A stretch of DNA of 64,000 nt. Source: Escherichia coli (lineage in GTDB: Bacteria; Pseudomonadota; Gammaproteobacteria; Enterobacterales; Enterobacteriaceae). The stretch lies in the NCBI RefSeq assembly GCF_044324785.1, contig NZ_CP172127.1, one strand, 5' to 3'. The notes under the pieces are model-generated. The model had not been told where the DNA came from and made no database searches. It saw only the letters and a list, made by a program, of their open reading frames with translations. The stretch's first letter is position 1, and each line of letters opens with the position of its first letter. The position numbers were made by a program, and so were the translations under genes. Below are positions 4,526-48,576 of this stretch, one piece after another.

Positions 4526-4825
4526 AAAAATTCCTTAATACTGATAACTTGGCGCACTATACACACGTTCCTGAAGAAAGCTATAGTTTTTTGATGGGGT
4601 TGAAGATGGCTGGATGTCTAAAATAAACATTGCTTCATATGTTCAACTATGCGTTAATGATTGCGTCGGTTTGAAGAACAGACGATATACGAAGTAGTTT
4701 ACTAAAGCAGTTCTCATTTCAGGTGTTATTCACTTATTCCTTCTTTGAGTCTCTCCAATTAAGTACGAAGTCGTTTCTGTTATGCAAACCATTTATGCCG
4801 AAAGGCTCAAGTTAAGGAATGTAGA

Positions 4826-5041
4826 ATGTCAAATAAAATGACTGGTTTAGTAAAATGGTTTAACGCTGATAAAGGTTTCGGCTTTATTTCTCCTGTTGAT
4901 GGTAGTAAAGATGTGTTTGTGCATTTTTCTGCGATTCAGAATGATAATTATCGAACCTTATTTGAAGGTCAAAAGGTTACCTTCTCTATAGAGAGTGGTG
5001 CTAAAGGTCCTGCAGCAGCAAATGTCATCATTACTGATTAA
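4826..5041 (+). CDS. cspB: Cold-shock protein CspA family
   Basis: 71-aa [26 protein letters not shown]...; RNP1/RNP2 motifs; long AT-rich 5' leader. Confidence 0.95.
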
Positions 5042-5322
5042 AATTCATCGCTCGTCTGTATACGATAACGAAGAAGGCTGATGCCTGAGTAGAGATACGG
5101 ACAGAGTAGTGAATATTGGATCTCTTTAATAAAAAGTAAGGAGGTCCAATACATGAAACAATGGCTAGCATATTTGGCAAAATCTTAATCAGGAAAAGTA
5201 TGCTAACCATTGTGGTGAAGTGCAGGTTTGCTGCATGAATAGTTTTACAGCAGAAGCTAACTGCTGGCATGGCAAAACAAAGTGCGTAAGTGGATGACTC
5301 CCACAAAAAGCACCACAATCTC

Positions 5323-7350: not shown

Positions 7351-7713
7351 GGTAATATTAAATCGGAACATTTACATCGCGGAATGTAAAATTTAAATAA
7401 AAAGGACTCTTCCATGAGCCAAAATTCCTGAAATCTTAAGGGTAAGATAAAAGGTCTTAATCAGAATGACACGTTATTATTAATAAATAAAGCTATTCTT
7501 TCATTGCTGTGTTTTTCTTTACAAAAGTAATCCTTGCTATGGGTGGTTAATCATGCGTTAATGGTGTTCTGGTTTGTTACAAATTTATCTGAAGCAGTCA
7601 TTGTTATAATTTTATTATTTGTACCTCTTGAGATTTCCTTGTTGGTTTTTCTCTCTGATATTTTTTTTCGGACCATTCTGCCCAAGGGCTAATTTCTTCA
7701 AAAGGTAATAATT

Positions 7714-7926
7714 ATGTCTAACAAAATGACTGGTTTAGTGAAATGGTTTAACCCTGAAAAAGGTTTTGGTTTCATCACGCCGAAAGATGGCAGCAAAGAT
7801 GTGTTTGTCCATTTCTCAGCAATTCAGAGCAACGATTTCAAAACATTAACTGAGAATCAGGAAGTTGAATTTGGTATTGAGAACGGACCTAAAGGTCCTG
7901 CCGCTGTTCATGTAGTGGCGCTTTGA
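7714..7926 (+). CDS. cspI: Cold-shock protein CspA family
   Basis: 70-aa [26 protein letters not shown]...; long 5' leader. Confidence 0.95.
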
Positions 7927-8014
7927 GGTAGACAATATTACAAACCATATTCACTTTAGATGCCCGTGTTGTCATGGTTCCCAGTATAGAACATCATCTT
8001 TTGATGTTTCTGAC

Positions 8015-10534: not shown

Positions 10535-10560
<26 letters not shown>
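10015..10560 (+). CDS. nu1: Terminase small subunit (lambda Nu1-like)
   Basis: 181 aa MEVNKKQLADIFGASIRTIQNWQEQGMPVLRGGGKGNEVLYD...; winged-HTH N-terminus. Confidence 0.95.
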
Positions 10561-14241
<3,681 letters not shown>

Positions 14242-14261
<20 letters not shown>

Positions 14262-19954: not shown

Positions 19955-20370
19955 GTTTTGCCCTGAAACTGGCGCGCGAGATGGGGCGACCCGACTGGCG
20001 TGCCATGCTTGCCGGGATGTCATCCACGGAGTATGCCGACTGGCACCGCTTTTACAGTACCCATTATTTTCATGATGTTCTGCTGGATATGCACTTTTCC
20101 GGGCTGACGTACACCGTGCTCAGCCTGTTTTTCAGCGATCCGGATATGCATCCGCTGGATTTCAGTCTGCTGAACCGGCGCGAGGCTGACGAAGAGCCTG
20201 AAGATGATGTGCTGATGCAGAAAGCGGCAGGGCTTGCCGGAGGCGTTCGTTTTGGCCCGGACGGGAATGAAGTTATCCCCGCTTCCCCGGATGTGGCGGA
20301 CATGACGGAGGATGACGTAATGCTGATGACAGTATCAGAAGGGATCGCAGGAGGAGTCCGGTATGGCTGA
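19936..20370 (+). CDS. T: gpT portion of the gpG-T frameshift fusion chaperone
   Basis: 144-aa -1 frame ORF beginning at slippery site (no independent RBS expected). Confidence 0.85.
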   Translation: MFDGELSFALKLAREMGRPDWRAMLAGMSSTEYADWHRFYSTHYFHDVLLDMHFSGLTYTVLSLFFSDPDMHPLDFSLLNRREADEEPEDDVLMQKAAGLAGGVRFGPDGNEVIPASPDVADMTEDDVMLMTVSEGIAGGVRYG

Positions 20371-22942
20371 ACCGGTAGGCGATCTGGTCGTTGATTTAAG
20401 TCTGGATGCGGCCAGATTTGACGAGCAGATGGCCAGAGTCAGGCGTCATTTTTCCGGTACGGAAACTGATGCGAAAAAAACAGCGGCAGTCGTTGAACAG
20501 TCGCTGAGCCGACAGGCGCTGGCTGCACAGAAAGCGGGGATTTCCGTCGGGCAGTATAAAGCCGCCATGCGTATGCTGCCTGCACAGTTCACCGACGTGG
20601 CCACGCAGCTTGCAGGCGGGCAAAGTCCGTGGCTGATCCTGCTGCAACAGGGTGGTCAGGTTAAGGACTCCTTCGGCGGGATGATCCCCATGTTCAGGGG
20701 GCTTGCCGGTGCGATCACCCTGCCGATGGTGGGGGCCACCTCGCTGGCGGTGGCGACCGGTGCGCTGGCGTATGCCTGGTATCAGGGCAACTCAACCCTG
20801 TCCGATTTCAACAAAACGCTGGTCCTTTCCGGCAATCAGGCGGGACTGACGGCAGATCGTATTCTGGCCCTGTCCAGAGCCGGGCAGGCGGCAGGGCTGA
20901 CGTTTAACCAGACCAGCGAGTCACTGACGGCGCTGGTGAATGCCGGTGTGCGTGGTGGTGAGCAGTTTGAGGCGATCAGCCAGAGTGTGGCGCGTTTCTC
21001 CTCTGCATCCGGCGTGGAGGTGGACAAGGTCGCTGAAGCCTTCGGGAAGCTGACCACAGACCCGACGTCGGGACTGACAGCGATGGCACGTCAGTTCCAT
21101 AACGTGACGGCGGAGCAGATTGCGTATGTTGCTCAGTTGCAGCGTTCCGGAGATGAAGCCGGGGCATTGCAGGCGGCGAACGAGGCCGCAACGAAAGGGT
21201 TTGATGACCAGACCCGCCGCCTGAAAGAGAACATGGGCACGCTGGAGACCTGGGCAGACAGGACAGCACGGGCATTCAAATCCATGTGGGATTCGGTGCT
21301 GGATATTGGTCGCCCGGACACTGCCCAGGGAATGCTGGAGAAAGCAGAAAAGGCTTTTGATGAGGCGGACAAAAAATGGCAGTGGTATCAGAGCCGAAGC
21401 CACCGGCGCGGTAAAACCTCAGCATTTCTTGCCAATCTCCGGGGAGCATGGGAGGACAGAGCGAATGCGCAACTTGGGCTTTCAGCCGCCACGTTGCAGG
21501 CCGATCTTGAAAAGGCCAGAGAGATGGCAGCAAAGGACTGGGCCGAGTCTGAGGCATCACGGCTGAAATATACCGAAGAGGCGCAGAAGGCTTACGAACG
21601 CCTGCAGACGCCGCTGGAGAAATATACCGCCCGTCAGGAAGAACTGAACAAGGCACTGAAAGACGGGAAAATCCTGCAGGCAGATTACAACACGCTGATG
21701 GCGGCGGCGAAAAAGGATTATGAAGCGACGCTGAAAAAGCCGAAACAGTCCGGCGTGAAAGTGTCTGCGGGCGATCGTCAGGAAGACAGTGCTCATGCTG
21801 CCCTGCTGACGCTTCAGGCTGAACTCCGGACGCTGGAGAAGCATGCCGGAGCAAATGAGAAAATCAGCCAGCAGCGCCGGGATTTGTGGAAGGCGGAGAG
21901 TCAGTTCGCGGTACTGGAGGAGGCGGCGCAACGTCGCCAGCTGTCCGCACAGGAGAAATCCCTGCTGGCGCATAAAGATGAGACGCTGGAGTACAAACGC
22001 CAGCTGGCTGCACTTGGCGACAAGGTTACGTATCAGGAGCGCCTGAACGCGCTGGCGCAGCAGGCGGATAAGTTCGCACAGCAACAACGGGCAAAACGGG
22101 CAGCCATTGAGGCGAAAAACCGGGGGCTTACTGACCGGCAGGCAGCGCGGGAAGCCACAGAACAGCGCCTGAAGGAACAGTATGGCGATAATTCGCTGGC
22201 GCTGAATAACGTCATGTCAGAGCAGAAAAAGACCTGGGCGGCTGAAGACCAGCTTCGCGGGAGCTGGATGGCAGGCCTCAGGTCCGGCTGGAGTGAGTGG
22301 GAAGAGAGCGCCACGGACAGTATGTCGCAGGTTAAAAGTGCAGCCACGCAGACCTTTGATGGTATTGCGCAGAATATGGCGGCGATGCTGACCGGCAGTG
22401 AGCAGAACTGGCGCAGCTTCACCCGTTCCGTGCTGTCCATGATGACAGAAATTCTGCTTAAGCAGGCAATGGTGGGGATTGTCGGGAGTATCGGTAGCGC
22501 CATTGGCGGGGCTGTTGGTGGCGGCGCATCCGCATCAGGCGGTACAGCCATTCAGGCAGCTGCGGCGAAATTCCATTTTGCAACCGGAGGATTTACGGGA
22601 ACCGGCGGCAAATATGAGCCAGCGGGGATTGTTCACCGTGGTGAATTTGTCTTCACGAAGGAGGCAACCAGCCGAATTGGTGTCGGCAACCTGTACCGCC
22701 TGATGCGGGGCTATGCGGAAGGTGGTTATGTGGGCGGTGCCGGAAGTCCGGCGCAGATGCGGCGGGCTGAAGGCATTAATTTTAATCAGAACAATCACGT
22801 GGTGATTCAGAACGACGGTACGAATGGTCTGCCAGGTCCACAGATGATGAAGGCAGTGTATGACATGGCCCGCAAGGGTGCCCGTGATGAAATTCAGGCA
22901 CAGATGCGCGATGGTGGTCTGTTCTCCGGAGGTGGACGATGA
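20363..22942 (+). CDS. H: Tail tape measure protein gpH
   Basis: 859 aa; long alpha-helical/coiled-coil region, Gly-rich C-terminal segment. Confidence 0.95.
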   Translation: MAEPVGDLVVDLSLDAARFDEQMARVRRHFSGTETDAKKTAAVVEQSLSRQALAAQKAGISVGQYKAAMRMLPAQFTDVATQLAGGQSPWLILLQQGGQVKDSFGGMIPMFRGLAGAITLPMVGATSLAVATGALAYAWYQGNSTLSDFNKTLVLSGNQAGLTADRILALSRAGQAAGLTFNQTSESLTALVNAGVRGGEQFEAISQSVARFSSASGVEVDKVAEAFGKLTTDPTSGLTAMARQFHNVTAEQIAYVAQLQRSGDEAGALQAANEAATKGFDDQTRRLKENMGTLETWADRTARAFKSMWDSVLDIGRPDTAQGMLEKAEKAFDEADKKWQWYQSRSHRRGKTSAFLANLRGAWEDRANAQLGLSAATLQADLEKAREMAAKDWAESEASRLKYTEEAQKAYERLQTPLEKYTARQEELNKALKDGKILQADYNTLMAAAKKDYEATLKKPKQSGVKVSAGDRQEDSAHAALLTLQAELRTLEKHAGANEKISQQRRDLWKAESQFAVLEEAAQRRQLSAQEKSLLAHKDETLEYKRQLAALGDKVTYQERLNALAQQADKFAQQQRAKRAAIEAKNRGLTDRQAAREATEQRLKEQYGDNSLALNNVMSEQKKTWAAEDQLRGSWMAGLRSGWSEWEESATDSMSQVKSAATQTFDGIAQNMAAMLTGSEQNWRSFTRSVLSMMTEILLKQAMVGIVGSIGSAIGGAVGGGASASGGTAIQAAAAKFHFATGGFTGTGGKYEPAGIVHRGEFVFTKEATSRIGVGNLYRLMRGYAEGGYVGGAGSPAQMRRAEGINFNQNNHVVIQNDGTNGLPGPQMMKAVYDMARKGARDEIQAQMRDGGLFSGGGR

Positions 22943-25344: not shown

Positions 25345-28300
25345 ATGGGTAAAGGAAGCAGTAAGGGGCATACCCCGCGCGAAGCGAAGGACAACCTGAA
25401 GTCCACGCAGTTGCTGAGTGTGATTGATGCCATCAGTGAAGGGCCGATTGAAGGTCCGGTGGATGGATTAAAAAGCGTGCTGCTGAACAGTACGCCGGTG
25501 CTGGACAGTGATGGGAATACCAACATCGCCGGTGTCACGGTGGTGTTCCGGGCTGGTGAGCAGGAGCAGACTCCGCCGGAGGGATTTGAATCCTCCGGCT
25601 CCGAGACGGTGTTGGGTACGGAAGTGAAATACGACACGCCGATCACCCGCGCCATCACGTCGGCAAACATCGACCGACTGCGCTTTACCTTCGGTGTGCA
25701 GGCACTGGTGGAAACCACCTCAAAGGGGGACCGGAATCCGTCGGAAGTTCGCCTGCTGGTTCAGATACAGCGTAATGGTGGCTGGGTGACGGAAAAAGAC
25801 ATCACCATTAAGGGCAAAACCACCTCGCAGTATCTGGCCTCGGTGGTGGTGGATAACCTGCCGCCGCGCCCGTTTAATATCCGGATGCGCAGAATGACGC
25901 CGGACAGCACCACAGACCAGCTGCAGAACAAAACGCTCTGGTCGTCATACACCGAAATCATCGATGTGAAACAGTGCTACCCGAACACGGCACTGGTCGG
26001 CGTGCAGGTGGACTCGGAACAGTTCGGCAGCCAGCAGGTGAGCCGTAATTATCATCTTCGCGGGCGCATTCTGCAGGTGCCGTCGAACTATAACCCGCAG
26101 ACGCGGCAATACAGCGGTATCTGGGACGGAACGTTTAAGCCAGCATACAGCAACAACATGGCCTGGTGTCTGTGGGATATGCTGACCCATCCGCGCTACG
26201 GCATGGGGAAGCGTCTCGGTGCGGCGGATGTGGACAAATGGGCGCTGTATGTCATCGGCCAGAATTGCGACCAGTCGGTGCCGGATGGCTTTGGTGGCAC
26301 GGAGCCGCGCATCACCTGTAATGCCTGGCTGACCACACAGCGCAAGGCGTGGGATGTTCTCAGTGATTTCTGCTCGGCGATGCGCTGTATGCCGGTATGG
26401 AACGGGCAGACGCTGACGTTCGTGCAGGACCGACCGTCGGATAAGGTGTGGACCTATAACTGCAGTAATGTGGTGATGCCGGATGATGGCGCGCCGTTCC
26501 GCTACAGCTTCAGTGCCCTGAAGGACCGTCATAATGCCGTTGAGGTGAACTGGATTGACCCGGATAACGGCTGGGAGACGGCGACAGAGCTTGTTGAAGA
26601 TACGCAGGCCATTCTCCGTTACGGTCGTAACGTCACGAAGATGGATGCCTTTGGCTGTACCAGCCGGGGGCAGGCGCACCGCGCCGGGCTGTGGTTGATT
26701 AAAACGGAACTACTGGAAACGCAGACCGTGGACTTCAGCGTGGGGGCGGAAGGGCTTCGCCATGTGCCGGGCGATGTCATTGAAATCTGCGATGATGACT
26801 ATGCGGGGATCAGCACCGGCGGGCGCGTGCTGGCGGTGAACAGCCAGACCCGGACGCTGACGCTCGACCGTGAAATCACGCTGCCATCCTCCGGTACCAC
26901 GCTGATAAGCCTGGTTGACGGAAGTGGCAATCCGGTCAGCGTGGAGGTCCAGTCCGTCACCGACGGCGTGAAGGTAAAAGTGAGCCGTGTTCCTGACGGC
27001 GTTGCCGGATACAGCGTATGGGGGCTGAAGCTGCCGACGCTGCGCCAGCGCCTGTTCCGCTGCGTGAGTATCCGTGAGAACGACGACGGCACGTATGCCA
27101 TCACCGCCGTGCAGCATGTACCGGAAAAAGAAGCTATCGTGGATAACGGGGCGCACTTTGACGGCGACCAGAGCGGCACGGTGAATGGTGTCACGCCGCC
27201 AGCAGTGCAGCACCTGACTGCCGAAGTCACCGCAGACAGCGGGGAGTATCAGGTACTGGCCCGCTGGGACACGCCGAAGGTGGTGAAGGGCGTGAGTTTC
27301 ATGCTTCGCCTGACCGTAACAGCGGATGACGGCAGTGAGCGGCTGGTCAGCACGGCCCGGACGACGGAAACCACTTACCGCTTCACACAACTGGCTCTGG
27401 GGAACTACAGGCTGACAGTCCGGGCAGTAAATGCGTGGGGGCAGCAGGGCGATCCGGCGTCGGTATCGTTCCGGATTGCCGCACCGGCAGCGCCGTCGCG
27501 GATTGAGCTGACGCCGGGCTATTTTCAGATAACCGCCACGCCGCATCTTGCGGTTTATGATCCGACGGTACAGTTTGAGTTCTGGTTCTCGGAAAAGCGG
27601 ATTGCGGATATCAGGCAGGTTGAAACCAGCGCGCGTTATCTTGGTACGGCACTGTACTGGATAGCCGCCAGTATCAATATCAAACCGGGCCATGATTATT
27701 ATTTTTACGTTCGCAGTGTGAACACCGTTGGCAAATCGGCATTCGTGGAGGCTGTCGGTCAGCCGAGTGATGATGCATCAGGCTATCTGGATTTTTTCAA
27801 AGGCGAGATAGGGAAAACCCATCTGGCTCAGGAGCTGTGGACGCAGATTGATAACGGTCAGCTTGCGCCTGACCTGACTGAAATCAGGACGTCCATAACG
27901 GATGTCAGCAATGAAATAACACAGACCGTCAATAAGAAACTGGAAGACCAGAGTGCAGCGATCCAGCAGATACAGAAGGTTCAGGTTGATACAAATAATA
28001 ACCTGAACAGCATGTGGGCAGTGAAGCTGCAGCAGATGCAGGACGGACGCCTTTATATTGCGGGTATCGGTGCCGGTATTGAGAACACCCCTGACGGCAT
28101 GCAGAGTCAGGTGCTGCTGGCGGCGGACAGGATTGCGATGATTAATCCTGCAAATGGCAACACAAAACCGATGTTTGTTGGTCAGGGTGATCAGATATTC
28201 ATGAATGACGTGTTCCTGAAACGCCTGACGGCTCCCACCATTACCAGCGGTGGAAATCCGCCGGCATTTTCCCTGACACCGGACGGAAAGCTGACCGCTA

Positions 28301-28842
28301 AAAATGCGGATATCAGTGGCAGTGTGAATGCGAACGCCGGGACGCTCAACAATGTCACGGTAAATGAAAACTGTACGATTAAGGGCATGCTGGAGGCGAC
28401 TCAGGTCAGAGGTGACTTCGTTAAAGCTGTATCCAAATCATTCCCGAAACAGGCTGGTACGTGGGGTAATACGGAAACACCAAACGGGACGGTTACAGTC
28501 ACCATCAGCGATGATCATAACTTTGACCGTCAAATCATTATTCCGCCCATTATCTTTAACGGAATAGCGTATAGCGATCCGGGAAGTGGTAATAACCCGG
28601 GAGGTACAAGATACACGGGTTATGGTTTTGAAGTTCGCAAAAACGGCGTATTAATCGCATCCAGAGAAACTAAAGGGGCCATTCCCGGTAGTTACAGTGC
28701 AGTTATTGATATGCCGAGTGGCAGGGGAAGCGTCACTCTGGAGTTTAAGATTTTCCAGAAAGGCAATCAGGGGGCAGGCAATATCACCGACTGTACGGTG
28801 ATTGTGACCAAAAAAGCCGCTTCCGGCATCAGTATTCGTTGA
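25345..28842 (+). CDS. J: Central tail fiber / host specificity protein gpJ
   Basis: 1165-aa ORF; N-terminal and central regions lambda J-like; C-terminal region appears divergent. Confidence 0.95.
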
Positions 28843-29566: not shown

Positions 29567-29576
29567 TGGGGTGAAT

Positions 29577-32405
29577 ATGGCAGTAAAGATTTCAGGTGTA
29601 CTGAAAGACGGCACAGGAAAACCGGTACAGAACTGCACAATCCAGCTGAAAGCAAAACGTAACAGCACCACGGTGGTGGTAAACACGCTGGCCTCAGAAA
29701 ATCCGGATGAAGCCGGGCGTTACAGCATGGACGTTGAGTACGGGCAGTACAGCGTTATTCTGTTGGTGGAGGGATTCCCGCCGTCACATGCCGGGACCAT
29801 CACCGTGTATGAAGATTCCCGACCCGGTACGCTGAATGATTTTCTCGGTGCCATGACGGAGGATGATGCCCGTCCTGAGGCACTGCGCCGTTTTGAACTG
29901 ATGGTGGAAGAGGTGGCGCGTAACGCGTCCGCGGTGGCACAGAACACGGCAGCCGCGAAGAAGTCAGCCAGCGATGCCGGCACATCAGCACGTGAGGCGG
30001 CAACCCATGCGACTGATGCTGCAGGCTCAGCACGCGCAGCCAGCACGTCAGCCGGACAGGCCGCGTCGTCGGCTCAGTCAGCATCTTCCAGCGCAGGAAC
30101 GGCATCAACAAAGGCCAGTGAAGCATCGAAAAGTGCTGCTGCTGCAGAGTCCTCAAAAAGCGCGGCAGCTACCAGTGCCGCTGCGGCGAAAACGTCAGAA
30201 ACGAATGCGGCAGCGTCACAACAATCAGCAGCCACTTCTGCATCCGCCGCGACCACGAAGGCGTCAGAAGCTGCCACCTCAGCCCGGGATGCGGCGGCCT
30301 CAAAAGAGGCGGCAAAATCATCAGAAACGAGCGCAGCCTCGAGCGCCAGTAGTGCAGCCTCCTCGGCAACAGCGGCAGGAAATTCCGCGAAGGCGGCAAA
30401 AACGTCCGAGACGAACGCTAAGTCTTCTGAGACGGCAGCAGCACAGAGTGCCTCCGCAGCAGCAGACTCAAAAACAGCGGCTGCCTCATCTGCCAGCGCC
30501 GCGTCAACAAATGCCGGGCAGGCCTCAGCCAGTGCCACCGCCGCCGGAAAATCGGCAGAAAGTGCTGCATCGTCCGCTTCAACAGCCACAACGAAGGCTG
30601 GCGAAGCCGCTGTACAGGCCAGCGCAGCAGCGAGGTCTGCTTCCGCAGCGAAGACATCCGAGACGAACGCGAAAGCGTCGGAAACCAGCGCAGAATCCTC
30701 AAAAACGGCTGCCGCATCGTCCGCCAGTTCGGCGGCGTCATCGGCATCATCTGCGTCTGCTTCAAAAGATGAGGCGACCAGACAAGCGTCCGCAGCGAAG
30801 GGCAGCGCCACGACAGCATCCACGAAGGCGACAGAGGCAGCTGGCAGTGCGACGGCGGCAGCACAGAGCAAAAGTACGGCGGAATCCGCGGCAACGCGCG
30901 CCGAGACAGCGGCAAAACGGGCAGAGGATATTGCATCCGCCGTGGCGCTTGAGGATGCGAGCACGACGAAAAAGGGGATAGTACAGCTCAGCAGTGCGAC
31001 CAACAGCACTTCCGAGTCACAGGCGGCAACGCCAAAAGCCGTTAAGGCCGCGTATGACCTGGCTAACGGGAAATACACCGCACAGGACGCTACGACAGCA
31101 CAAAAAGGAATTGTCCAGCTCAGTAGTGCAACCAACAGCACATCTGAAACGCTTGCTGCGACACCGAAAGCAGTGAAAGCAGCTAATGACAATGCGAATG
31201 GTCGGGTACCTTCTGCCCGTAAGGTGAATGGTAAGGCGCTTTCAGCGGATATAACACTGACGCCGAAAGATATTGGTACGCTTAACTCAACAACAATGTC
31301 ATTCAGCGGTGGTACTGGTTGGTTCAAATTAGCAACGGTAACCATGCCACAGGCGAGTTCTGTTGTTTCAATTACGTTGATTGGTGGCGCTGGATTTAAC
31401 GTGGGGTCACCTCAACAGGCAGGTATATCTGAACTTGTTTTACGTGCAGGTAATGGTAATCCGAAGGGGATTACTGGTGCTTTATGGCAGCGCACATCGA
31501 CAGGGTTTACAAATTTTGCCTGGGTCAATACATCTGGTGATACTTACGATATTTACGTTGCAATCGGAAATTATGCGACTGGTGTAAATATTCAATGGGA
31601 TTATACCAGTAATGCCAGCGTGACGATTCATACGTCACCAGCATATTCTGCTAATAAGCCGGAAGGGTTAACGGACGGTACAGTTTATTCACTCTATACG
31701 CCATCAGAGCAGTTTTATCCGCCTGGCGCACCAATCCCGTGGCCATCAGATACCGTTCCGTCTGGCTATGCCCTGATGCAGGGGCAGACTTTTGACAAAT
31801 CTGCATACCCGAAACTTGCAGCCGCTTATCCGTCAGGCGTGATCCCTGATATGCGTGGCTGGACGATTAAGGGCAAACCTGCCAGTGGTCGGGCCGTATT
31901 GTCTCAGGAACAGGACGGCATTAAATCGCATACCCACAGCGCCAGCGCATCCAGTACGGATTTGGGGACGAAAACCACATCGTCGTTTGATTACGGCACT
32001 AAATCCACGAATAACACTGGTGCGCATACCCATAGTTTAAGTGGCAGCACGAATGCAGCTGGTAATCACAGCCATAGAGATGGCCGTCGATTTAACCCCA
32101 GTGTTTTTAAAGATACTTATCAATATGGTTATACAAGCTCAGGTCAAAATACCTGGGGTGTACAAGGCTCAGTAGGTATGTCTACGGGGTGGTTAGCGAA
32201 TACCAGTACAGATGGTAATCATAGCCATTCACTGTCCGGCACAGCAGCATCTGCAGGTGCACACGCGCATACTGTCGGTATTGGTGCTCATACGCACTCC
32301 GTTGCGATTGGTTCACATGGACACACCATCACCGTTAACGCTGCTGGTAACGCGGAAAACACCGTCAAAAACATCGCATTTAACTATATTGTGAGGCTTG
32401 CATAA
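29577..32405 (+). CDS. stf: Side tail fiber protein Stf
   Basis: ORF 29571-32405; start at [12 protein letters not shown]; Ala/Ser-rich repeat block, duplicated phage tail-fiber repeat ([15 protein letters not shown]...[10 protein letters not shown]), His-rich HxH C-terminal motifs. Confidence 0.9.
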
Positions 32406-32980
32406 TGGCATTCAGAATGAGTGAACAACCACGGACCATAAAAATTTATAATCTGCTGGCCGGAACTAATGAATTTATTGGTGAAGGTGACGCATATATT
32501 CCGCCTCATACAGGTCTGCCAGCAAACAGTACCGATATTGCACCACCAGATATTCCTGCTGGCTTTGTGGCTGTTTTCAACAGTGATAAGGCATCGTGGC
32601 ATCTCGTTGAAGACCATCGGGGTAAAACGGTTTATGACGTAGCGTCAGGGGACGCGTTATTTATTTCTGAACTCGGTCCGTTACCGGAAAATGTTACCTG
32701 GTTATCGCCGGAAGGGGAGTTTCAGAAGTGGAACGGCACAGCCTGGGTGAAAGATGCAGAAGCAGAAAAACTGTTCCGGATCCGAGAGGCGGAAGAAACA
32801 AAAAACAGCCTGATGCAGGTAGCCAGTGAGCATATTGCGCCACTTCAGGATGCTGTAGATCTGGAAATCGCAACGGAGGAAGAAACCTCATTGCTGGAAG
32901 CCTGGAAAAAGTATCGGGTGTTGCTGAACCGTGTTGATACGTCAACTGCACAGGATATTGAATGGCCAGCACTGCCGTAG
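32405..32980 (+). CDS. tfa: Tail fiber assembly protein Tfa
   Basis: 191 aa [24 protein letters not shown]...; ATG overlaps stf stop (TAATG). Confidence 0.9.
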
Positions 32981-43858: not shown

Positions 43859-43975
43859 GCTCCGTTTAACATTCATTGAGAAAACTGATGCTACTGTGTC
43901 AACGATCCGTTATCAGTGCAGGAAAATGCCTGTTAGCGTAAAAGCAAAACACAAATCTATCCATGCAAGCATTCA

Positions 43976-44001
43976 CCGCCGGTTTACTGGCGGTTTTTTT
44001 T
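43976..44001 (+). terminator. Intrinsic terminator (plus strand) in dgcZ-mgtS intergenic region
   Basis: Hairpin CCGCCGG-TTTA-CTGGCGG followed by T8. Confidence 0.55.
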
Positions 44002-44007
44002 CGCCGT

Positions 44008-44049
44008 CATAAAAATCAGGCCCCTTGTACACAACTGTAACAAGGGGCC
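44008..44049 (-). terminator. Intrinsic terminator for mgtS (minus strand)
   Basis: 10-bp stem GGCCCCTTGT/ACAAGGGGCC followed on the minus strand by TGATTTTTAT. Confidence 0.55.
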
Positions 44050-44076
44050 GGTTAGGTGAGGGATTATCTCCGTTCA

Positions 44077-44172
44077 TTAGTCATCCCATTTGTGGCTGAA
44101 ATACGCGGCCAGAAAACCAGAAAATAAAATTATTCCCAGTACGGCCATAAAAACATTCATATTACCCAGCAT
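44077..44172 (-). CDS. mgtS: MgtS (YneM) 31-aa inner-membrane small protein
   Basis: Hand-translated MLGNMNVFMAVLGIILFSGFLAAYFSHKWDD; SD GGAGG upstream; below track cutoff. Confidence 0.8.
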   Translation of the reverse strand: MLGNMNVFMAVLGIILFSGFLAAYFSHKWDD

Positions 44173-46610: not shown

Positions 46611-46829
46611 CTACATAGCGTGTTGATTATAATAGGGCACGCCGAGCGCATCCGACTTATCACTGCCAGTACCCATGTGATTTAAATCAAACGGTGGTTG
46701 TTCCTGCGATGGGGGAACAACCACGACATTGGCACAGGAAGTAACAACCGGCTGCGTGGTTTGTTCCGCAATGCCCTGCGTGGAAAAGAGAATAAGCGCA
46801 GCTGCTATTGCGGATAAAAGTGGTTTCAT
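46611..46829 (-). CDS. marB: MarB periplasmic protein
   Basis: 72 aa MKPLLSAIAAALILFSTQGIA... Confidence 0.9.
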   Translation of the reverse strand: MKPLLSAIAAALILFSTQGIAEQTTQPVVTSCANVVVVPPSQEQPPFDLNHMGTGSDKSDALGVPYYNQHAM

Positions 46830-46860: not shown

Positions 46861-47244
46861 CTAGCTGTTGTAATGATTTAATGGATGTAAAAAGCGCGAT
46901 TCGCCCTGCATATTGGTCATCCGGTATTTATGCGGCGGAACATCAAAGTAATTTTTGAAGGTTCGGGTCAGAGTTTGTTGCGACTCGAAGCCATATCGTT
47001 CTGCCAGATAGAGTATCGGCTCGTTACTTTCCTTCAGCTTTTGCGCGATTTCCGTCATCTTACGGCTGCGGATGTATTGGCCTAATGAATGACCGGTTTC
47101 TTTTTTAAACATCCGTTGCAGGTGCCATTTGGAGTAACCCGAACGCTCTGACACTTTCTCCAGTGACAGTGGCGATTCCAGGTTGTCCTCGATCCAGTCC
47201 AAAATGCTATGAATGGTAATAGCGTCAGTATTGCGTCTGGACAT
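46861..47244 (-). CDS. marA: MarA AraC-family transcriptional activator
   Basis: ORF 46861-47250; start at [22 protein letters not shown]. Confidence 0.95.
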
Positions 47245-47264
47245 CGTCATACCTCTTTTTTTGT

Positions 47265-47699
47265 TTACGGCAGGACTTTCTTAAGCAAATGCTCAAGTGT
47301 TGCCACTTCGTCCGCCGTCAGGTTTTTTGTTAATTCTTGGTGCAGGTCCTGGCCAACTAATTGATGGCATTGTTCACATATTGCCGCGCCGCTGGTGGTA
47401 AGTTTTACCAGTACGCCGCGCTTATCATTCGGGTTCGGCAACCTTTCCACCCAGCCTTTACAGACCAGGCGATCCAGCATACGGGTCAGTGCTCCCAGGT
47501 CGACCGACAATACCTTTTTCAGTTCAACCGGAGTAATACACGCCGCGCAGCGGATAGAGCAGAGCACCTTAAACTGTGCCGCGGTAATATCCAGCGGAGA
47601 CAGATACTCGTTAAGCAGGCGATCTTTCTTCTGATTAACCATATGGATTAAGCGACCCAATGGAATAATTTCATTGAACAGATCGCTGGTACTTTTCAC
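47265..47699 (-). CDS. marR: MarR repressor
   Basis: 144 aa [29 protein letters not shown]... Confidence 0.95.
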
Positions 47700-47800
47700 A
47701 TTAGTTGCCCTGGCAAGTAATTAGTTGCAGAGGATAATATTGCCCAGGCAAGTATAAGTCAAATGAATGAATTGACCGATGCCACGTTTTGCTAAATCGG
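47700..47800 (-). promoter_or_regulatory. marO operator/promoter with two MarR-binding palindromes TTGCCCTGGCAA (47705-47716) and TTGCCCAGGCAA (47740-47751)
   Basis: Two near-identical palindromes read directly upstream of marR on its coding strand. Confidence 0.6.
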
Positions 47801-47910
47801 TTCAAGTTTTGGTCAATGCGATGCAAGGTTAGCTAAAGAGTGACACTTTATCCTTGTTTACCCCTTATACTTTTCGCTGATAACCCAGATACACAGGATA
47901 ACAACCACCA

Positions 47911-48576
47911 ATGTTAGATTTGTTTAAAGCAATTGGCCTGGGGCTGGTGGTGTTACTACCGTTAGCTAACCCATTAACAACTGTCGCGTTATTTCTTGGC
48001 CTGGCAGGCAACATGAACAGTGCCGAACGTAATCGTCAGTCGTTGATGGCCTCGGTGTACGTCTTTGCCATCATGATGGTGGCGTATTACGCCGGGCAAC
48101 TGGTGATGGATACATTTGGCATTTCGATTCCCGGTCTGCGAATTGCAGGCGGCTTAATCGTCGCGTTTATCGGTTTTCGGATGCTCTTTCCGCAACAGAA
48201 AGCAATTGATTCACCGGAAGCGAAAAGCAAGTCGGAAGAGCTGGAAGATGAACCCAGTGCCAATATTGCTTTTGTACCACTGGCAATGCCTAGTACCGCC
48301 GGACCGGGAACCATTGCGATGATTATTAGCTCGGCGTCCACTGTGCGTCAGAGTTCAACCTTCGCTGATTGGGTACTGATGGCTGCGCCGCCGCTGATCT
48401 TTTTCCTGGTGGCGGTTATTTTGTGGGGAAGTCTACGCAGCTCTGGCGCAATTATGCGGCTGGTGGGCAAGGGGGGAATTGAAGCGATCTCCCGCCTGAT
48501 GGGATTCCTGCTGGTATGTATGGGCGTGCAGTTTATTATTAACGGCATCCTGGAAATCATTAAAACGTACCATTAA
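47911..48576 (+). CDS. marC: MarC-family inner membrane protein
   Basis: 221 aa [22 protein letters not shown]... Confidence 0.9.

Follow-up and report, generated by a model that had tools for sequence, protein, structure and literature searches.

The window, by which we mean the whole 64,000-nucleotide stretch of Escherichia coli DNA analysed here, carries a mar locus in which marR, marA and marB run on the minus strand and marC on the plus strand. The genes and the elements of the region between marR and marC are as follows, with substitutions given relative to K-12.

46611-46829, minus strand: marB, 72 aa; S5L, A17T, V20I and H44Q
46861-47244, minus strand: marA, 127 aa, identical to K-12 MarA
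47265-47699, minus strand: marR, 144 aa, GTG start, intact; G103S and Y137H
47700-47910: marC-marR intergenic region (marO and control region), 211 bp, placed by ORF coordinates, 99% K-12 identity and K-12 annotation
47705-47716: MarR site II core, TTGCCCTGGCAA on the plus strand and TTGCCAGGGCAA on the operon (minus) strand
47734-47739, minus strand: -10 hexamer TATTAT of the marRAB promoter, from a consensus scan
47740-47751: MarR site I core, TTGCCCAGGCAA on the plus strand and TTGCCTGGGCAA on the operon (minus) strand
47757-47762, minus strand: -35 hexamer TTGACT of the marRAB promoter, from a consensus scan
47779-47798, minus strand: marbox, GATTTAGCAAAACGTGGCAT on the operon strand, upstream of -35, placed by K-12 identity
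47911-48576, plus strand: marC, 221 aa, ATG start, divergent neighbour; V158A

MarR, MarA, MarB and MarC all score above the curated cut-offs of their NCBIfam equivalog models (320 bits against a cut-off of 240 in the case of MarR), and the flanking genes, eamA and ydeA by NCBIfam, stand in the same order as in K-12. Solved structures of MarR include 1JGS and 5H3R. MarB is the most diverged of the mar proteins, with four substitutions in 72 residues relative to K-12, three of which fall in an N-terminal signal-like segment. An earlier note on this DNA had described two near-identical palindromes in the marRAB promoter region, divergent from marC. The interval that it had assigned to this region, 47700-47910, is exactly the gap between marR and marC and is 99% identical to K-12 marO, and the two genes do diverge from it, marR from a GTG at 47699 on the minus strand and marC from an ATG at 47911 on the plus strand.

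Both 12-mers of the earlier note are present, and a single central base distinguishes site I from site II. As the operon lies on the minus strand, site I (47740-47751) comes before site II (47705-47716) in operon order. Their description as palindromes holds for the arms, which are inverted 5-bp sequences (TTGCC and GGCAA), but not for the 2-bp centre, which is asymmetric, so that each box is an imperfect or pseudo-palindrome rather than a perfect one. The pattern TTGCCNNGGCAA (TTGCC-N2-GGCAA) was matched only twice in the 64-kb window, against a shuffle mean of 0.13, and two or more matches were reached in one of 100 shuffles. A repeat search recovered the two sites as a 15-nt direct repeat, TTGCCC[T/A]GGCAAGTA, identical at 14 of 15 positions and 35 bp apart, a separation which means that the pair is not attributable to chance. 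Apart from chance-level matches with three mismatches, no further MarR box was found in the 64-kb window, which agrees with a MarR ChIP-seq study in which the marRAB promoter was the sole bound site (PMC5684230).

The promoter itself is built around these boxes. On the operon strand, the TTGACT/TATTAT pair agrees with the consensus at 10 of 12 positions and has a spacer of 17 nt, and the sequence reads TTGACT-TATAC-TTGCCTGGGCAA-TATTAT, placing site I within the spacer, where it abuts the -10 hexamer. Judged from the position of this hexamer, the marRAB transcription start should lie near 47726-47727 on the minus strand, in which case site II would span about +11 to +22. Site II lies 35 bp downstream of site I and ends 5 nt upstream of the marR GTG. 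Within it is the AGGG at 47708-47711, the likely ribosome-binding sequence of marR.

Autoactivation works through the marbox, to which the activators MarA, SoxS and Rob bind. Its core here, ccacgttttgctaaa (47782-47796), is the MarA ChIP-seq site given for marC<>marR in PMC5684230. Between 47783 and 47837 there are three marbox-like 14-mers, CACGTTTTGCTAAA, CAAGTTTTGGTCAA and CAAGGTTAGCTAAA, spaced 20-21 bp apart, the first of which is the true marbox. The second and third copies stand at the places described for an accessory marbox and a Fis site.

When a 291-bp control region was compared with K-12, 288 of 291 bases (99%) were identical and there was no indel. The three intergenic SNPs, at 47731, 47812 and 47829, all lie outside the boxes, the hexamers and the marbox; those at 47812 and 47829 fall inside marbox-like copies 2 and 3. 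The boxes and their flanks, the -35, the -10, the marbox, the 35-bp box spacing and the GTG start are thus the same in both, as are the flanking genes, and the description of the operator in the earlier note as a standard feature is borne out. The K-12 operator with which the window agrees, marO with its two MarR sites, is the one footprinted experimentally (Martin and Rosner 1995, cited in PMC5890708). Besides the three SNPs, K-12 differs in having G103 and Y137 in MarR, where the window has S103 and H137, and A6 in the marR-marA spacer, where the window has A7.

Allele counts were made in 5,426 complete E. coli genomes. For the two MarR codons, each query was a 41-mer with the variable base at its centre, which meant that every 28-base seed included that base. 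S103 was present in about 4,203 and H137 in about 4,218 of the 5,426 genomes (~78%), and the G103/Y137 form of K-12 is therefore the minority form in E. coli. A 91-mer with the SNPs at 47812 and 47829 had identical matches in 2,930 records. The A7 run in the marR-marA spacer (47256-47262) stands immediately before the marA ribosome-binding site and is likewise a common variant, its 91-mer being identical in 854 records. A 41-mer centred on the A-run gave zero matches, a result that we discarded as an artefact of low-complexity masking, given the 854 records matched by the 91-mer over the same run.

One genome per species was scanned for two boxes 18-28 nt apart (spacings of 30-40 bp). Among the loci listed, of which there were at least 120, 39 had a complete MarR orthologue (72-99% identity) adjoining the match, and a fortieth had a cut copy; the comparison of architecture covered 38 of the 39 complete loci together with K-12. 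As the scan pattern demanded both boxes, conservation of their 20 half-site bases is circular, and the independent evidence is confined to position, spacing, flanks, hexamers and marbox. In all 38 loci and K-12, TTGAC(T/A) stands 5 nt before box I, with TTGAC invariant, and TA[T/A/G]TAT follows flush after it. In the same set, box II is found 35 or 36 bp downstream of box I, with 4-6 nt left between it and the start codon, whereas the non-mar matches, among those listed, span the full permitted spacing of 30-40 bp. A marbox of the form TTTAGC...GTG.CAT is kept upstream across species, although the scan did not demand one. While the half-sites are constant, being fixed by the pattern, the central dinucleotides vary across loci, as would be expected if the protein reads the half-sites.

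This layout of boxes, promoter and marbox is shared by the marO regions of Salmonella, Citrobacter, Enterobacter, Raoultella, Cedecea, Atlantibacter, Mangrovibacter and other Enterobacteriaceae, which diverge from that of E. coli in the central dinucleotides, in the spacer between the boxes and throughout the sequence upstream of the marbox. Paired TACTTGCCTAGGCAA boxes also adjoin genes of more distant MarR-family members (32-55% identity) in Ramlibacter and Vibrio litoralis, at the following positions.

1353-1394 of locus L053: paired boxes, Ramlibacter
2344-2385 of locus L024: paired boxes, Ramlibacter
187-229 of locus L111: paired boxes, Vibrio litoralis

These pairs belong to different operons and are spaced at 30-31 bp, as opposed to 35-36 bp in mar. 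The TTGCC/GGCAA half-sites seem, from such matches, to be used well beyond the Enterobacteriaceae. One further match came from a 31-kb contig labelled as a metagenome-assembled Caldithrix sp. (L012, SMXE01000224.1). It carries the E. coli mar locus, is 97.8% identical to the window over 10.7 kb, and is almost certainly E. coli DNA that was mis-binned into the metagenome-assembled genome.

The third SNP differs from the other two in its rarity. At 47731 the operon strand has T where K-12 has C, at the third base past the -10 and between the two MarR boxes, which would be about -5 relative to the inferred transcription start. Of 5,418 E. coli records that matched the 91-mer with this T, only 33 were identical to it over the full length (~0.6%). 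The strains with it came from mouse, baboon, guinea fowl, cattle, dog, water and humans, and this variety of hosts makes the base resemble a lineage marker rather than a product of clinical selection. The corresponding column is variable across species, with ATCCTC found there in two further species, and the T is most likely neutral, a marker of lineage. Searching the literature for this SNP by its position in the old numbering, 1413, returned nothing. There is a slim chance that, lying in the discriminator region, it alters the basal or induced strength of the marRAB promoter in this lineage; if so, baseline efflux would shift, or the extent to which mar expression varies from cell to cell.

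The mar locus is the textbook regulator of intrinsic multidrug resistance, and its operator is an already known feature. We have very little doubt that the region studied here represents a canonical E. coli marO in its wild-type, repressible state, in which the two boxes of the marRAB promoter serve as MarR sites I and II, and none of the results spoke against this reading. The sequence, the positions, the identity with K-12, the intact repressor and activator and the conserved architecture come from the data presented here, and the binding and release of MarR, with the MarA-driven resistance that follows, from the literature or established knowledge. As a dimer, MarR binds both sites, of which I lies between -35 and -10 and II close to where translation starts (PMC3920692), and with two dimers on the two direct repeats RNA polymerase is blocked (PMC5890708). 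By the same scheme, MarR dimers on site I in the spacer would keep RNA polymerase off the promoter in this genome, while site II in the short leader would provide a second MarR site over the marR ribosome-binding sequence. An inducer, or oxidation, would free MarR, allowing the operon to be transcribed and MarA to be made. MarA bound at the marbox upstream of the -35 would then boost its own operon, and would also switch on the mar regulon, to which the AcrAB-TolC efflux pump belongs.

The earlier note had further suggested checking marR and marO against K-12 and clinical mar mutants, and this bears on whether the locus might instead carry a derepressed allele of the clinical type, with a defective MarR or operator. 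MarR does differ from K-12 at two residues, and marO has the rare SNP at about -5. However, G103S and Y137H are the only MarR differences that the check brought out, and S103 and H137 are the majority alleles in the counts above; the reading frame is full length at 144 aa, without frameshift or stop. Both boxes are intact, and the operator has no mutation in them and neither the deletion nor the 20-bp duplication of reported operator mutants, of which site I deletion gives a multidrug-resistance phenotype and the 20-bp duplication is a known type (PMC3920692). The SNP at 47731 lies outside both boxes in a species-variable column, and strains with it came from sources such as mouse, baboon, cattle, guinea fowl and water. 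In one published study, the level of resistance to levofloxacin, a fluoroquinolone, was not associated with G103S/Y137H, which occurs in isolates with MICs of 0.016-0.25 ug/mL (PMC4317672), and in another collection it was the commonest pair of MarR substitutions (PMC7082582). Given the allele frequencies, the intact MarR and the intact boxes, we rejected a resistance-type mar mutant as highly improbable. This negative result is useful in that it points, for this genome, to a mar operator of the ordinary, repressible kind and to a MarR that looks functional. Resistance-gene pipelines frequently flag G103S/Y137H, which gives practical weight to the caution that these two differences from K-12, being alleles common in nature, are not to be counted as resistance mutations.

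The remaining alternatives concern what the boxes do. They might form a two-way operator through which MarR also controls the divergent marC, an arrangement that would add to the marO reading rather than replace it. The marC start is 211 bp off on the opposite strand, and a weak plus-strand promoter-like pair, CTGGCA-17-GATAAT (47710-47738; 9 of 12 consensus positions), overlaps site II. Such pairs are nevertheless at chance level (2 sites in the region against 1.2 expected), this one lies ~170 nt upstream of the marC ATG, and the consensus scan gave no convincing promoter candidate near the gene. On balance, we consider control of marC through these boxes rather unlikely. It is also conceivable that the palindromes act as RNA, with a hairpin in the marR leader controlling translation in place of protein-binding sites in the DNA. 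Site II would indeed lie in the transcribed leader and includes the likely ribosome-binding sequence, and a small stem-loop is predicted there. The leader fold of -4.8 kcal/mol, however, is weaker than that of shuffled controls (mean -8.07, z = +1.42; 192 of 200 at least as stable), and for this reason the hairpin was dismissed; site I would lie upstream of the transcription start and so be untranscribed, and the marR-marC intergenic region has no Rfam family match. The likelihood of an RNA-based function seems to us negligible, and MarR-binding DNA sites in a canonical marO remain the preferred reading.

On a larger scale, the best match to window positions 36000-60000 among the 5,426 complete genomes is strain N3, with at most 98.9% identity over the 24 kb; its intergenic region is identical to that of the window. 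The same segment is 97.85% identical to K-12. Either the lineage to which the window belongs is poorly represented among complete E. coli genomes, or the window comes from Shigella, a group outside this collection.

Elsewhere in the window, positions ~2000-33000 hold the morphogenesis genes of a lambdoid prophage, and several RNA elements were matched by Rfam.

4665-5057: cspA-type thermoregulator leader (Rfam match)
7568-7953: second cspA-type thermoregulator leader (Rfam match)
10535-12460: prophage large terminase
12660-14261: prophage portal
20363-22942: prophage tape measure
25345-28842: prophage J-type central tail fibre
29571-32405: prophage side tail fibre
32748-32946: IS009 RNA (Rfam match)
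43870-44083: Hfq-binding small RNA STnc560 (Rfam match, 282 bits)
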